Source: a virus (Duplodnaviria > Caudoviricetes). From it: 25,063 bases of DNA. This document shows positions 10,019 to 14,586 of the stretch, in pieces. Numbering within the stretch: position 1 is the stretch's first letter; every line of letters starts with the position of its first letter. Location of the stretch: positions 1 through 25,063 of the IMG/VR virus record IMGVR_UViG_3300017780_001066. The stretch is one strand, 5' to 3'. The notes under the pieces were generated by a model. The model did not search any database. It was not told the origin of the DNA and saw nothing but the letters and a program-made list of their open reading frames with translations. The position numbers and the translations under genes were made by a program.

Positions 10019-11059
10019 ATGAGCATTGATTATTCTATGTTAAACGATCCTAATTTTATGAATAATATTGGGCAGAATGGTCCTGACGTTATTAAAGGTT
10101 ATGGTACTGGTATTAATAGAGCAACAGGTCAGTTCAATGCTCCTGCTGGTGGCTCTTCCGAAACTGATGTACAAACACAAGCGGATAATGCTGCTGCAAA
10201 ACGTCAAAAAAATCAACAAGATTATGAAGACCGAGTAAGAAACGCTGATAATCAAAGACGTATTGATAATGCTTCTGTAACTATGAAGCAGTTGGCTACT
10301 GACTATAATCTTATGTCTTTGTATAACAAAATGATTGAGTATGTTATTGCTGGCTATGATGATGCTGCTATTGCTTCTTTAATTAAGACAACTCCTGAAT
10401 ATAAGCAACGATTTCCTGCTATGGAGGCTCTTGCTCAAAAGGGTCGCGCTATGACTGAGGGTGAATATATTGAATATGAGCGTAAAGCCGCACAGTTAGA
10501 GAAGCAGTATGGTCTTCCTACAAGAATGATTCAAGACAATGTGACTACATTATTGACTCAAGAGATTTCTATTGATGAGTTAAATGATCGGGTTGTTTTG
10601 GCTTCTGGTGCTTCGGTTACTGCTCCTGCGGAGTTTAAGACCGCGATGAAAAATTATTATGGTGTTGATTCTGGTGGTTTGGCTGCCTACTATCTTGATC
10701 CTGGGATTGCTGCTCCTTTGCTTCAAAAGAACTATTCAACTGCTCTTATTGGTTCTGAGGCCATTAAACAGAATGTTGATCTTCAGTTGGATATTGCTAA
10801 TAACCTTCAAGATATGGGTGTTACTCAGGATACTGCTAGGCAAGGATTTGCTCAGGTTAATAGGGATCAGTCTTTGACTACTGGTAGGGGAGATGTTGTT
10901 GGACAAGAAAGTTTAATTAAGGGAACTTTTGGTGAACAAAACGCTGCTAAAGACATTGAACGTGCCAGAGGCGCGCGCGTAGGACAGTTCAAAGGTGGCG
11001 GTGGATTTACCTCTAGCGCACAAGGTGTCTCTGGTCTTGGCTCTGCTAAAACAAAGTAG
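10019..11059 (+). CDS. Hypothetical protein, putative virion/ejection protein (346 aa)
   Basis: SD-like AGGA upstream, helical body and Gly-rich C-terminus (FKGGGGF...SGLGSA). Last gene before the capsid promoter. Confidence 0.6.
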   Translation: MSIDYSMLNDPNFMNNIGQNGPDVIKGYGTGINRATGQFNAPAGGSSETDVQTQADNAAAKRQKNQQDYEDRVRNADNQRRIDNASVTMKQLATDYNLMSLYNKMIEYVIAGYDDAAIASLIKTTPEYKQRFPAMEALAQKGRAMTEGEYIEYERKAAQLEKQYGLPTRMIQDNVTTLLTQEISIDELNDRVVLASGASVTAPAEFKTAMKNYYGVDSGGLAAYYLDPGIAAPLLQKNYSTALIGSEAIKQNVDLQLDIANNLQDMGVTQDTARQGFAQVNRDQSLTTGRGDVVGQESLIKGTFGEQNAAKDIERARGARVGQFKGGGGFTSSAQGVSGLGSAKTK

Positions 11060-11069
11060 CGCGTTTCAC

Positions 11070-11098
11070 TTGACAGCCTAAATAATTGAGTCTACTGT
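11070..11098 (+). promoter_or_regulatory. Housekeeping sigma70-type promoter for the scaffold/capsid operon
   Basis: Perfect TTGACA (11070-11075), a 17-nt spacer and TACTGT (11093-11098, TAnnnT), in the only large intergenic region. Predicted TSS is near 11105. Confidence 0.8.
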
Positions 11099-11104
11099 TT
11101 AGTT

Positions 11105-11254
11105 AGAACTGAGTGCTCGCTTCTGAAAAGTAGATGGGCCGGTTCAATTATCCGCTGCATTTGACCCTGTGCGAGCGTGTACAAAAATGGGTGTACTTAA
11201 ACACAAACTCCAGCAGTGATGCTCCCGTTACTGCTGCGCTATGAAAGGGAAGTC
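11105..11254 (+). ncRNA. Putative structured cis-regulatory 5' leader RNA of the scaffold/capsid mRNA
   Basis: Four consecutive hairpins read by eye: 11106-11145 (GAAA tetraloop), 11153-11177, 11179-11196 and 11211-11236. The loop UCCC (11223-11226) is complementary to the SD GGGA (11247-11250). Confidence 0.55.
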
Positions 11255-11722
11255 ATGTCAACAAGTTACGACGAAGAATACGAAGTAGAGATAGACGAAG
11301 ATGAAGAGCAAGAGCCTTCAAACTTGAGGAAAGCCGCTAGACGAGGTTCTAAGGCTTCTAAAGAGAATGAAATGCTTAAACGGAAACTGGCTTTTTACGA
11401 AGCGGGAATCCCAATGAATGACCCGAAGATAAAGTATTTTATTAACGGTTATGACGGAGAGATTTCTTCTGACTCTATAAGGGCTGCTGCACTTGAAGCG
11501 GGTTTTATAGGTTCACAGAAACCAGAAGAAGTAAACGCTAACAATCAAGAAGTCTTTTCTGCTCAACAAAGAGTAGTAGAAGCATCACGCGGAGCAAATG
11601 TTCATCAAAACTCCGAAGCATCTGCTATGGCATTGTTGGAGCAGGCTATGGAAGAGGGCGGCGTCGAAGCAATGCTTGATATGGCACAACAATTTGGTAT
11701 GCAAATAGGCGAAGTCGAATAA
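11255..11722 (+). CDS. Capsid scaffolding protein (putative)
   Basis: Acidic N-terminus (MSTSYDEEYEVEIDEDEEQE), then a coiled coil (NLRKAARR...ENEMLKRKLAF), immediately upstream of the MCP. Start moved to ATG 11255 because of the AAGGGA SD; the track's 11216 start lies inside a hairpin. Confidence 0.75.
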   Translation: MSTSYDEEYEVEIDEDEEQEPSNLRKAARRGSKASKENEMLKRKLAFYEAGIPMNDPKIKYFINGYDGEISSDSIRAAALEAGFIGSQKPEEVNANNQEVFSAQQRVVEASRGANVHQNSEASAMALLEQAMEEGGVEAMLDMAQQFGMQIGEVE

Positions 11723-11737
11723 TAGGAAGGAACTTCA

Positions 11738-12775
11738 ATGCCAGCAGGTACAGGTACTCAAGGATCTAATCAAAACGGTCCTCTCGCAAATCCAGCGTAT
11801 TCACCGGGTGAGATTGTCACCGCAGCGGGTCCGCTATCAATTAACGCACCAGCACCAATCGTAGATATCACTCTTGGTAGTCAGTTTGTTACCAAGGCCT
11901 ACGACCTTATGGTGTACCCACCTCTACGTTCTGAACTGATCTTTGACCAGTTCGCTACTGTAAGGGCAAGCAATGTAACTCACCGTGGTGGTTCTGTTCG
12001 GTTCTCTTTCGTGGATGACCTTTCAATTCAAACCACTCCTCTACTCGAAAACAATGACGTTGATAGCATTGCGCTTAACAGCCGTGCTCTTACTCTGTCA
12101 ATGCGCGAGTATGGTACAGCGGTGACAAACACGGCTCTTATTCGTGGAACTTCCATGATTGCTATGGACCCACTTATTGCTGAGCGTGTTGGATACAACG
12201 CAGGAAAGTCTATTGACTCTCTTGCTCGTGTCGCTCTTGATGCTACGACAATCACTTATGATGACGCAAGCACCGCAACGATTGGTTCGATTGGTACAGG
12301 TTCAGGTTCATACTTGACAGGCCAAATTCTTCGTGATGGTGTGGCTCGTCTTCAGGCAGCAAATGTTCGTCCATTCCGTGGAGGTAACTTTGTTGCTGTT
12401 GTTTCTCCTTATCAGGCACAACAACTGAAGAGCGAATCAACTGATACAGGTTGGCGTTACACCGTTGGTCGTAATGACGGCGCTGGCGGAAACAGCATCT
12501 TCAACGGTGAGATTGGTACTTACGAAGGTGTTCGCATCGTCGTTAACAACAACCTCACTAACTTGGGTCAAGGATATTTGATGGGTGCTGAGGCTCTTGC
12601 CAAGGCATACAGCAACGCTCCCGGCTTTGGTCCTAATCCTTCAACCGTGGTTTCTCCTGTGGTTGACAAGTTGAAGCGTTTCGCTTCAGTCGGCTGGTAT
12701 CACTTGGTTGGTTACAGTGTGTTCCGTGCCGAGGCTTTGCTTCAGATTAAAACTGACGCTGGTCTGAAACCATAA
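11738..12775 (+). CDS. Major capsid protein (HK97 fold, N4-gp56-like family)
   Basis: 345 aa. Motifs LIFDQFA, TPLLE, LSMREYG, GYNAGKSID, GEIGTYEGVRIV and DKLKRFASVGWY are typical of this MCP family. Strong SD, more C-ending codons (suggesting high expression), and a terminator follows. Confidence 0.9.
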   Translation: MPAGTGTQGSNQNGPLANPAYSPGEIVTAAGPLSINAPAPIVDITLGSQFVTKAYDLMVYPPLRSELIFDQFATVRASNVTHRGGSVRFSFVDDLSIQTTPLLENNDVDSIALNSRALTLSMREYGTAVTNTALIRGTSMIAMDPLIAERVGYNAGKSIDSLARVALDATTITYDDASTATIGSIGTGSGSYLTGQILRDGVARLQAANVRPFRGGNFVAVVSPYQAQQLKSESTDTGWRYTVGRNDGAGGNSIFNGEIGTYEGVRIVVNNNLTNLGQGYLMGAEALAKAYSNAPGFGPNPSTVVSPVVDKLKRFASVGWYHLVGYSVFRAEALLQIKTDAGLKP

Positions 12776-12780
12776 TTTGT

Positions 12781-12818
12781 TGACTGGCTCCTCATTCGTT
12801 GGGGAGCCAGTCACTTTT
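12781..12818 (+). terminator. Intrinsic terminator after major capsid gene
   Basis: 14-bp stem TGACTGGCTCCTCA / TGGGGAGCCAGTCA (one G-U pair), TTCGT loop, then CTTTT. The short U tract suggests partial read-through. Confidence 0.85.
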
Positions 12819-12832
12819 ACTAAGGAGATATC

Positions 12833-13366
12833 ATGGCTAAACCTGCAAGTGGAATGTATAAGACTAAGGCTCGTAACCTTACTGACGCACAGTTAAAACG
12901 TGCTAAGGGTGCTGGTGCTGCTGCTAAACGAACTGTTTCTGTTAGTGACACTAAGCGTGAAACTACTGGCGCTAATAAAGGTTTTACTCTTGGTCCGGGT
13001 GGTAAGCGTCTTACGGGAACTGTAATTATGCCTAACGGTGATCGTGCTGTTTACAAGGGTGGAAAGCGTGTTACTAACGTACCTAAGGCTTCTGCTGTAA
13101 AAAGCGGTAGTAGCGGTGGTGGTTCTAAAACTAGTCCTTACTCAATGACTAAGGGAAAAACTTATAGCAACAATAGTGTTAGTTCTAGTGTTCGTGAACG
13201 TAAACCTGCAAAGCAATACACTATGACTGCTGCTCAAGCAAAAAAGATGGGCGCTGAAGGTCCAAAGGGTAATCCAAATTCTTCTAGTTACGTTCGGCCT
13301 AAGCCAACAAAGAACGCTTATAGTAAGAGGATTGAATCCGCACTTGCCAGTAGAAAAGGTAAATAA
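12833..13366 (+). CDS. Lys/Arg/Ser-rich basic hypothetical protein (177 aa)
   Basis: TAAGGAGA SD. Very basic and low-complexity, with one small beta-like segment (GKRLTGTVIMPNGDRAVYKGGKRV). Confidence 0.8.
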   Translation: MAKPASGMYKTKARNLTDAQLKRAKGAGAAAKRTVSVSDTKRETTGANKGFTLGPGGKRLTGTVIMPNGDRAVYKGGKRVTNVPKASAVKSGSSGGGSKTSPYSMTKGKTYSNNSVSSSVRERKPAKQYTMTAAQAKKMGAEGPKGNPNSSSYVRPKPTKNAYSKRIESALASRKGK

Positions 13367-13368
13367 TC

Positions 13369-14028
13369 ATGGCTACTAAATTTCGTGGATCTGAGGGTCC
13401 TAAGCGTAGTGTTGCAAAGTCAACTGCTGTTAACCGTATTGCTGCTTCTAAAAGGGCATCAGTAAAAAGGTCTTCTGCTGAAGGTCCTAAGAAGAGTACT
13501 TCTAAGCCTACTTCTATGCAAAGTTATATGGCTAAGAATCCTCCAAGGATTGTTGAGTCTGGTGTAGGAAATATCCCTATGACTATTGCTCGTGCTGGTA
13601 AAGCAGCGGTTGATTTTTTTAAGGGACCTGCTGTTAAAGTTACTCCTAAGCCTTCTTCTTTTAAGTCTACAACTTCAGGTGTTAGTAAAAAAACTGGTGG
13701 TCCATTGAAGAATGGTAAGCCAGTTAAGTTGGGTCCTCGTAATAAAACTTCTTTTACTCCTGCTGAAAAGGCTGCTCGAACTCGTGCCATGAAAAAGGCT
13801 CGTGCTGCTTATGCTGCTGAGGGTCCAAAGAAATCTGTTTCTTCTGCTCGTACTACTGCTTTTACTAACAAAAGAGTTATGGGTGCTGGTGCTGCTGTTG
13901 GTGGAACTACTGCTCTTGCTGCTGCTGCTTCAAAAAGAGGTAGTTCACCAAAATCAAATTCTCTTCCCAAAGGCGCTTCTATGGGCAAGATGGTTTGGAA
14001 TGGTAGTACTTGGGTTAAGAAGAAGTAA
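13369..14028 (+). CDS. Lys/Ala/Ser-rich basic hypothetical protein (219 aa), histone-H1-like composition
   Basis: AAGGT SD. Only 6 acidic residues, three EGPK motifs, and a C-terminal WNGSTWVKKK. Confidence 0.8.
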   Translation: MATKFRGSEGPKRSVAKSTAVNRIAASKRASVKRSSAEGPKKSTSKPTSMQSYMAKNPPRIVESGVGNIPMTIARAGKAAVDFFKGPAVKVTPKPSSFKSTTSGVSKKTGGPLKNGKPVKLGPRNKTSFTPAEKAARTRAMKKARAAYAAEGPKKSVSSARTTAFTNKRVMGAGAAVGGTTALAAAASKRGSSPKSNSLPKGASMGKMVWNGSTWVKKK

Positions 14029-14298
14029 GTGGCTACTCCTGCGTGGCAGCGGTCTGAAGGCAAGAACCCTAAAGGGGGTTTGAACGCTAAAGGTCGTGCG
14101 TCTTACAAGAAAGCAACTGGTGGGACTTTGAAGCCTCCTGTTAAGAAGGCTGCTGCTAAGAAGTCTCCTAAGGCTGCTGCTCGTAGGAAGTCGTTTTGTG
14201 CAAGAATGAAGGGTATGAAAAAAGTTAATACTTCGGCTAAGACAGCGAAGAATCCTAATAGTCGTATTAACAAATCATTGAGAGCGTGGGATTGCTAA
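14029..14298 (+). CDS. Conserved small basic phage protein (DUF6321-like, 89 aa)
   Basis: GTG start abutting the previous stop. PAWQRxEGKNPKGGLNAKGRASY...RRKSFCARM...SRINKSLRAWDC is a recognisable, widespread phage family signature. Confidence 0.8.
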   Translation: MATPAWQRSEGKNPKGGLNAKGRASYKKATGGTLKPPVKKAAAKKSPKAAARRKSFCARMKGMKKVNTSAKTAKNPNSRINKSLRAWDC

Positions 14299-14438
14299 TG
14301 TGTATGAAATGTGGTTGTGGCAAGAAGGCTGGTCAAAAGGGTTACGGTATGGGTCCTGCTAAGAAAATGGCCGCTAAACCGACTTCTAAGTCTTCTATGA
14401 TGAAGAAGCCTATGAAGAAAATGTCTCGTGGTAAGTAA
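14298..14438 (+). CDS. Small Cys/Lys/Met-rich basic protein, 46 aa (not in ORF track)
   Basis: MCMKCGCGKKAGQKGYGMGPAKKMAAKPTSKSSMMKKPMKKMSRGK*. TAATG coupling to the previous gene, and codon usage like its neighbours. Confidence 0.75.
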   Translation: MCMKCGCGKKAGQKGYGMGPAKKMAAKPTSKSSMMKKPMKKMSRGK

Positions 14439-14586
14439 ACCTTTTTGGGAAACGACTAATCCTAAGAAAAAATCTACGCCTTTGACAGCGAGCCAGAAGG
14501 CTGCTGCTAAGCGTAGGGCTAAGGCTGCTGGTCGTCCGTATCCTAATCTTGTTGATAATGCTGCGGTTAAAAGAAAGAAGAAGTAG
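14428..14586 (+). CDS. Small basic protein, about 52 aa, with AGRPYPNLVDN motif (not in ORF track)
   Basis: GTG start: MVSKPFWETTNPKKKSTPLTASQKAAAKRRAKAAGRPYPNLVDNAAVKRKKK*. The stop overlaps the next GTG (TAGTG). Confidence 0.75.
   Translation: MVSKPFWETTNPKKKSTPLTASQKAAAKRRAKAAGRPYPNLVDNAAVKRKKK

Follow-up and report, generated by a model that had tools for sequence, protein, structure and literature searches.

A conserved modular RNA leader 5' of a putative phage scaffold gene, with a candidate role as a translational operator

The scaffold-capsid locus and its homologues

The window analysed here, a stretch of 25,063 nt, covers the virion-gene region of a tailed phage, in which 20 of the 27 junctions between main open reading frames (picked by hand) measure 4 nt or less. 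The longest junction, a gap of 195 nt, lies between a 346-aa ORF (10019-11059) and a 155-aa ORF (11255-11722, + strand) whose acidic, predicted all-helical product belongs to phrog_7813 and is putatively a head scaffolding protein. The gene for the 345-aa major capsid protein follows 15 nt past the scaffold stop codon with a Shine-Dalgarno (SD) sequence of its own (11738-12775, + strand; phrog_1357, E 7e-36), and a terminator-like 14-bp hairpin (12781-12813, + strand) marks the end of the scaffold-capsid unit. Past this terminator a series of small, very Lys/Arg-rich ORFs (12833-14586) possibly encodes DNA-condensing core proteins, and another long gap, A+T-rich and 142 nt in length (2371-2512), lies 5' of a 1950-aa gene and could hide a short ORF or a promoter.

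A preliminary description of this DNA had proposed that about 150 nt, almost all of it able to pair, are kept between a consensus promoter and the scaffold ATG. The exceptional length of the gap bears this out; the promoter falls short of consensus. The promoter-like site (11070-11098, + strand) combines a -35 element TTGACA (11070-11075), a 17-nt spacer and a -10 element TACTGT (11093-11098) that matches 3 of 6 consensus bases, and the site is unlisted by a consensus promoter scanner. Promoter-like sites are nonetheless kept among homologues, with scores of at least 13 in 94 of 124 leaders versus 23 of 124 coding controls, and the position of the site in the window would place the transcription start at about 11104-11106. 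Freshwater RNA libraries from three studies contain contigs that start at 11115, 11127 and 11136 and extend, with 0 mismatches, into the scaffold coding sequence; they reveal neither start nor strand, and their lack of cover 5' of 11115 carries no evidential weight. These contigs fit a 5' UTR beginning near 11105, and DNA carry-over is possible.

All strings quoted in the preliminary description, including the ATG at 11255, sit where it had placed them, so the capacity to pair is present in the leader; the fold itself shows no excess over chance, as the whole leader of the window scores z = -0.92 and -1.18 against shuffles and module 3 alone (see below) has a median folding z of -0.29 (n = 107 cores). 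Since the single sequence folds no better than its shuffles, the case for structure rests entirely on comparison.

Homologous loci were gathered through the capsid protein (25) and through an alignment of scaffold proteins (the best 79 viral and the best 80 metagenomic), with some loci repeating contigs; a search with the window scaffold as a single protein query returned no viral loci. The 185 sequences yielded 183 with a scaffold match, and removal of 6 incomplete ones left 177 leaders, 125 of them distinct. Of the homologous loci, one is part of an Actinomycetales MAG contig; two others come from MAGs of other phyla, in which the binning is uncertain. In three loci (L057, L075, L089) a tiny Cys-rich ORF (CxxC...CPxC) separates the scaffold promoter from the gene 5' of it.

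Position, helicity, weak profile matches and annotators' labels make the 155-aa protein a likely head scaffold, an identity that stops short of proof because homology to characterised scaffolds is weak. It shares phrog_7813 with the pre-capsid protein of Beephvirinae; the label 'scaffolding protein' appears in 5 of 29 Streptomyces phage records with homologues, and one homologue matches phrog_206 weakly (E 4e-4). No Pfam family matches the window protein and none of 27 aligned proteins matches PF06810, which is the nearest Pfam-bearing Atlas cluster (0.89; a lead only). A fold search with a model of the scaffold (pLDDT 68, pTM 0.36) gave no match, and prediction of a scaffold-capsid complex scored 0.03. 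The family has a median net charge of -14, yet Lys/Arg residues are conserved at positions 22, 32, 42, 43, 49, 58, 64 and 76, and a YFxxGYxG motif is invariant.

Hairpin modules and their loop pairings

The hairpin next to the scaffold gene, which we term module 3 (P4 of the preliminary description; 11210-11238, + strand), consists of CC (11210-11211), a stem, the loop CUCCC (11222-11226) and a return strand that ends in GCG (11236-11238); the arms described earlier (11211-11219 and 11228-11236), the loop UCCC (11223-11226) and the SD GGGA (11247-11250) are all present. Across homologues the order of elements is CC, a stem of about 8 bp, loop, return strand, GNG, linker and a loop-pairing strand that overlaps the SD. 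A descriptor made of CC, stem, loop, return strand and GNG, 12-40 nt 5' of the start codon and blind to the pseudoknot, found module 3 in 124 of 125 distinct leaders, and scores of at least 12 were reached by 107 of 107 distinct cores versus 25 of 535 dinucleotide shuffles. The sole exception is leader L186, in which the scaffold start is possibly miscalled or the element lost. Leaders vary in their modules, the shortest (about 60 nt) keeping module 3 only. Many leaders (L002-L015, L114-L187) have an optional, variable hairpin inserted after module 2 and 5' of module 3, frequently with ACC within its loop or close to it; the window lacks this hairpin.

Stem pairs 1-4, counted ungapped from the base, hold in 103-107 of 107 cores with 4-6 pair types each. 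Aligned on sequence only, 50 chosen cores show 90.8% pairing in the stem and 145 double changes, a result matched by 0 of 500 shuffles, and sliding the registers of this same alignment drops pairing to 25-54%. G.U pairs far outnumber A.C pairs in the module (108 versus 5), which indicates an RNA of the + strand. In 150 simulations under our own tree-aware null, none equalled stem pairs t1-t7, a result that is partly circular because the columns were anchored by the parse.

The invariant nucleotides of module 3 number only five, namely C22, G33, G35 and G45 in the sequence-only alignment together with the anchored CC; both G of GNG are invariant in that alignment, CC and GNG having served as anchors of the parse. 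Conservation is also at least 90% for an unpaired C that precedes the loop strand and for an A that precedes the SD strand, and the distance from loop to G1 is 8-9 nt in 103 of 106 cores. Of 107 cores, 61 have U.U below the C1-G2 pair and 32 have G.G, depending on the clade, which possibly represents a non-canonical pair switching by clade and is not significant in the tree-aware test.

Beneath CC and GNG, a basal stem of 2-4 bp covaries (CCU/AGG, GCU/AGC, AGGU/ACCU, CCG/CGG), and every one of the 32 distant-type cores has it, as GC/GC (21), AC/GU (8) or GU/AC (3). Strands score higher with their own partner than with foreign ones (2.69 versus 2.27; 0 of 2000 permutations); the tree-aware test flagged no basal-stem columns, and the copy in the window is degenerate. 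The stem uses tail bases just 5' of the SD strand and, once formed, leaves about 3-5 nt to span at least 10 bp to the loop, from which helix geometry would imply either a kinked helix or mutually exclusive states. The basal stem is a candidate for a real alternative state.

The preliminary description had further suggested that the P4 loop pairs with the SD. In the window this loop-SD pseudoknot (11223-11250, + strand) joins UCCC (11223-11226) to GGGA (11247-11250), the latter lying inside the purine run GAAAGGGA (11243-11250) that ends 4 nt short of the ATG. The complement of a core's own loop four-mer is present in 106 of 107 tails, and the strand on the SD side leaves 4-11 nt to the start codon, 6 nt being the spacing in 66 of 106, a distance that implies overlap with the SD. 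In the sequence-only alignment of 107 cores the four pairs are UA (63) or CG (40); CG (64), UA (38) or AU (1); CG (107); and CG (98), UG (5), GC (1) or UA (1), and a fifth pair is unformed in 103 of 107 cores. Observed loop/SD variants include UCCC/GGGA, CUCC/GGAG, CUCG/CGAG, CUCU/AGAG, UACC/GGUA and CCCC/GGGG. On the scaffold tree the distant clade has CUCY/GGAG in place of UCCC/GGGA, a change that recurs in L044/L176/L177/L181, and UACC/GGUA (L170), CUCG/CGAG (L093), CUCU/AGAG (L104) and CCCC/GGGG (L046) are variants of single branches; one further contig, L310, has CACC/GGUG. Several of these compensated variants keep pairing though the SD becomes weaker.

Part of this complementarity is cheap, since the SD is constrained to be purine-rich in any case. 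The UC/CU swap acts as a single event, parsimony counts 4-6 changes per column, and, in an alignment with five rows shifted by one column, the two variable pairs reach E 0.06 and 0.067, which is borderline under our own tree-aware null. Taken together with the compensated changes across homologues, the comparison leads us to regard the loop-SD knot as very probably real.

The same design recurs upstream. Module 2 (P2, described earlier at 11153-11177; 11152-11179, + strand) has CC (11152-11153), a stem, a loop (11161-11168) and GUG (11177-11179), and a 4-bp pseudoknot (11164-11192, + strand) joins ACCC of the loop (11164-11167) to GGGU (11189-11192). In the leader types closest to that of the window (L108, L112) this knot extends to 5 bp, GACCC/GGGUC. 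The general order is again CC, stem, loop, GNG, linker and partner strand, with UA after GNG in 73 of 87. Module 2 was parsed in 87 distinct leaders, including a few wrong parses, all of which were kept; 32 leaders remained unparsed. The pairing of CCC in the P2 loop with GGG in the P3 loop, a second pseudoknot of the preliminary description, is borne out in that loops favour their own partner (4.55) over foreign ones (3.93 +/- 0.09; 0 of 2000 permutations). Its types include GGCC/GGCU, GACC/GGUC, AGCC/GGCU and GGCG/CGCU as well as GGUCC/GGAC, UGACA/UGUCA, UGGC/GCCA and CCCC/GGGG. When 73 of the 87 parses were aligned with MAFFT, a column count gave 59% pairing at the chosen register and 73.5% one column over, a misregistration caused by variable linker lengths. 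A model built from module 3 places module 2 as its second-best match in the window, weakly so (11 bits, E 0.36). Judged from these sequences, P2 and P4 are two copies of a single CC/GNG module, a relationship that the preliminary description had overlooked. A lower stem beneath module 2 is unsupported in the homologues. The module 2 loop of the window has a further possible partner in the SD/start region (about -6.3 kcal/mol), a pairing that we did not take as general given that most homologous loops differ in sequence.

Module 1 (P1; 11106-11145, + strand) is a hairpin with a GAAA cap (11125-11128) and pair probabilities of 0.6-0.99, in which GAACUG (11106-11111) faces CGGUUC (11140-11145) and GCUCG (11115-11119) faces UGGGC (11135-11139). 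This GNRA-type hairpin is kept in the clade of the window, where the window's own is a diverged copy with a U.U mismatch that the homologue parser missed, and it is absent from the shortest leaders.

The comparative data thus back P1, P2, P4 and both loop pairings. Two other elements of the preliminary description fared less well. The strings of P3 are present (GUACA 11179-11183, UGUAC 11192-11196); as a helix it is found with at least 5 bp in 12 of 87 leaders and is absent from L108 and L112. A switch pairing of GCUCGC (11115-11120) with GCGAGC (11171-11176), proposed as mutually exclusive with P1 and P2, exists in the window without being conserved across leaders: the window scores best of 75 leaders (6.5), the mean is 3.12 versus 3.0 for swapped partners (37 of 2000 permutations), the ensemble probability is 0.009 and forcing the pairing costs 3.3 kcal/mol. 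Both the P3 helix and this pairing look like accidents of one genome's sequence.

Gene linkage, relatives and known RNA systems

A distant-type RNA pattern, which contained neither gene nor SD, matched at least 120 loci. Among the matches listed, 94 bear the stem and 93 of these lie 5' of a scaffold homologue, the remaining one being cut by a contig end; of the 26 stemless matches listed, none precedes a scaffold homologue. Similarly, all 11 contigs matched by a consensus pattern of module 1 were already known from this locus. The placement of the leader before the scaffold gene, as initially described, is therefore a one-to-one association. When the model was run on 151 genomes of one actinobacterial order, with 38 candidates scored per genome, no true host copy emerged: of the 9 matches, 1 is a phage contig (L308/L316) and 8 lack the hairpin and are mostly antisense to coding sequence.

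The nearest cultured relatives are Streptomyces Beephvirinae, whose capsid proteins are 28-30% identical to that of the window. Their leaders (8, of which 7 are distinct) resemble the window's in outline, with a lower stem, G.G, C-G, a bulged U and an upper stem, and the loop CCUAG is complementary to CUAGG in the SD. The stems are 98.9% paired with 18 double changes; the knot is invariant and so holds no covariation information. A covariance model from module 3 failed to detect the Beephvirinae leaders, so that homology rests on position, gene family and architecture. A covarying hairpin occupies the first 45 nt of the Beephvirinae leader, and the bases immediately 5' of this hairpin may pair with its loop in a further pseudoknot. 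In L105-L107 and L311-L315, about 19-22 tRNA genes (the whole cluster in L105-L107) end right at the scaffold leader.

The preliminary suggestion that the motif is undescribed is in keeping with Rfam 15, whose covariance models gave 0 matches in the window or in 20 homologous loci and chance-level matches elsewhere (E up to 5-10). The c-di-GMP-I riboswitch was rejected, as its alignment is confined to the GAAA hairpin of L004 (positions 16-31 of 80; 10.6 bits versus 59), and resemblances to HDV-like or pistol ribozymes were dropped with no Rfam match. In preQ1-I, SAM-II and SAM/SAH riboswitches, an H-type pseudoknot in which a hairpin loop pairs with the SD sequesters the latter. The window leader shares the loop-SD pseudoknot, borderline in the tree-aware test, and differs in having no model match, no conserved ligand core and no ligand-related genes or metabolic gene context. 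We conclude that the leader is a real RNA family absent from Rfam, structured leaders before scaffold genes being already known as orphans.

PF06810, which we take to be the GP20 family, now carries the Pfam name Phage_scaffold. Orphan motifs 5' of GP20 genes comprise GP20-a (RF02991), GP20-b (RF03003) and six more candidate RNAs (Fremin et al. 2023, PMC10690425). As far as the accessible text of that paper extends, GP20-a and GP20-b are like the window leader in being orphan structured RNAs directly 5' of a scaffold-family gene with the same proposed role, and the hosts given for six GP20 candidates are Firmicutes (PMC10690425). RF02991 and RF03003 are not among the Rfam matches to the leaders, and the window leader, compared at the level of covariance-model matches and gene context, differs from them in having no model match and in preceding a protein without PF06810; four Firmicutes phage head regions contained no GP20-a or GP20-b instance. 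The leader is not described in the accessible portions of the literature searched, which include bioRxiv 10.64898/2026.09.22.753630, and may be among the candidates of Fremin et al. 2023 (PMC10690425) or Weinberg et al. 2017 (PMC5737381).

With autogenous operators the leader shares a conserved 5' structure that overlaps the initiation region and a one-to-one link to its gene. Autoregulation of the P22 gene 8 scaffolding protein reportedly goes back to Wyckoff and Casjens in 1985. The P22 scaffold (gene 8) is implicated in translational autoregulation (bioRxiv 10.1101/2022.12.13.520362) and is recycled (PMC3185693). In the available excerpts of this literature, the P22 gene is like that of the window in lying directly 5' of the coat gene and in translational self-control as the proposed logic; no sequence relation is shown between the two, and a defined RNA structure for P22 scaffold autoregulation does not appear in these excerpts, whereas here a covarying RNA target is defined and the regulation is only proposed. 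A 5' leader pseudoknot bound by the gene's own product with repression of initiation, as we propose here, is described for T4 gene 32 and E. coli rpsO/S15 in the accessible sections of the sources (PMC3014915, PMC3985624). According to these, the T4 gene 32 knot is located far 5' and serves as the nucleus for cooperative coating of a ribosome-binding region rich in A+U, whereas in the window leader the knot includes the SD strand as one of its two strands and the module occurs as a repeat.

Candidate regulatory roles of the leader

At the level of sequence, comparison has shown the stems and their fixed length, the pairing of both loops, the repetition of the module and its exclusive link to this gene. 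From there we infer that the pseudoknot forms in vivo and that scaffold is the ligand. The ratio of scaffold to coat protein governs correct procapsid formation. In the model to which we give an even chance, the conserved modular leader would be a translational operator autoregulated by scaffold. Free scaffold would bind the repeated CC/GNG hairpin modules and, once bound, would stabilise the loop-SD pseudoknot and thereby turn off its own translation; capsid protein would titrate scaffold away and so relieve repression, and the capsid gene, with its own SD, would escape direct control. With 4 bp and a duplex of about -5 kcal/mol the knot is presumably marginal without ligand, and nested folding of the window favours a closing pair G11221-C11226 that competes with it, so that a stabilising ligand would make the leader a switch.

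Protein sites usually show a small, invariant bulge motif that recurs in variable stems whose length is fixed. The few invariant nucleotides and the occurrence of the module once or twice per leader resemble such iterated protein sites, which favours an operator, and the basic/aromatic patch kept in an acidic scaffold, along with autoregulation and recycling in P22, favours scaffold autoregulation; the conserved basic residues could instead serve capsid or DNA binding, and strict gene linkage equally fits any cis element, including a ligand-free one. A broader form of the operator model, possible and in our judgement slightly short of an even chance, is a class of tandem-pseudoknot operators in which scaffold would sense its free pool via the CC/GNG sites, with the last module toggling between basal stem and SD knot.

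Loop-SD pairing beside the start codon (spacer 4-11 nt, mostly 6) and the separate SD of the capsid gene are all that is needed by a ligand-free attenuator, in which a knot formed part of the time would fix scaffold initiation at a rate below that of the capsid on the same mRNA. We consider this unlikely: it leaves unexplained the C-G/bulge/C-G motif that recurs in the SD-less module and the fixed 8-9 nt from loop to G1 (103 of 106), and for plain attenuation a hairpin burying the SD would be simpler. The identity of a binder lies beyond what RNA data can tell, and the basal stem under CC/GNG could be an alternative state, so the same operator might be bound by capsid, another phage protein or a host protein, possibly as an activator that opens the knot. 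Such a binder seems quite improbable to us, given that, among the matches listed, the motif is seen before no other genes, that no true host copy occurs in the 151 genomes of one actinobacterial order, and that the sole precedent found for a scaffold gene is self-regulation.

That module 1 starts at the inferred transcription start, and that the Beephvirinae leader follows directly on a tRNA cluster, whose processing would leave a 5' end in need of protection, could point to a role of the upstream modules, perhaps of the whole fold, mainly in preventing decay at the 5' end of the head mRNA, with SD pairing secondary. The shortest leaders retain just the SD-linked module, and the SD strand co-varies with the loop, which argues against mRNA protection and makes it a very doubtful account. 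Least credible, and in our view highly improbable, is a small-molecule, ion or temperature riboswitch, with tandem pseudoknot aptamers closing over the SD. Its H-type loop-SD topology would be like that of preQ1-I, SAM-II and SAM/SAH, and the unpaired C and A beside the knot strands, at least 90% conserved, could form triples; against it stand the absence of an Rfam match, the five invariant nucleotides of the module, the linkage to one structural gene and the lack of a true cellular copy among the genomes searched.

Where orphan RNA motifs before scaffold genes have been without a mechanism, the leader family offers a covariation-backed structure that includes the ribosome-binding site; its natural compensatory variants are a guide for mutagenesis, and cultured phages that grow on laboratory Streptomyces strains allow direct tests. 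If the operator model is true, the tandem-pseudoknot class would span uncultured aquatic phages and cultured Streptomyces podoviruses, and would provide scaffold autoregulation with an RNA target of defined structure and Actinobacteria with a portable switch that responds to protein.

As a separate observation, the scaffold leaders of phages LL-H and A118 (L336:6430-6495 and L337:4530-4590), which have no Rfam match, each contain a short hairpin and, after it, GUAAAA immediately 5' of the SD, loosely similar to module 2.
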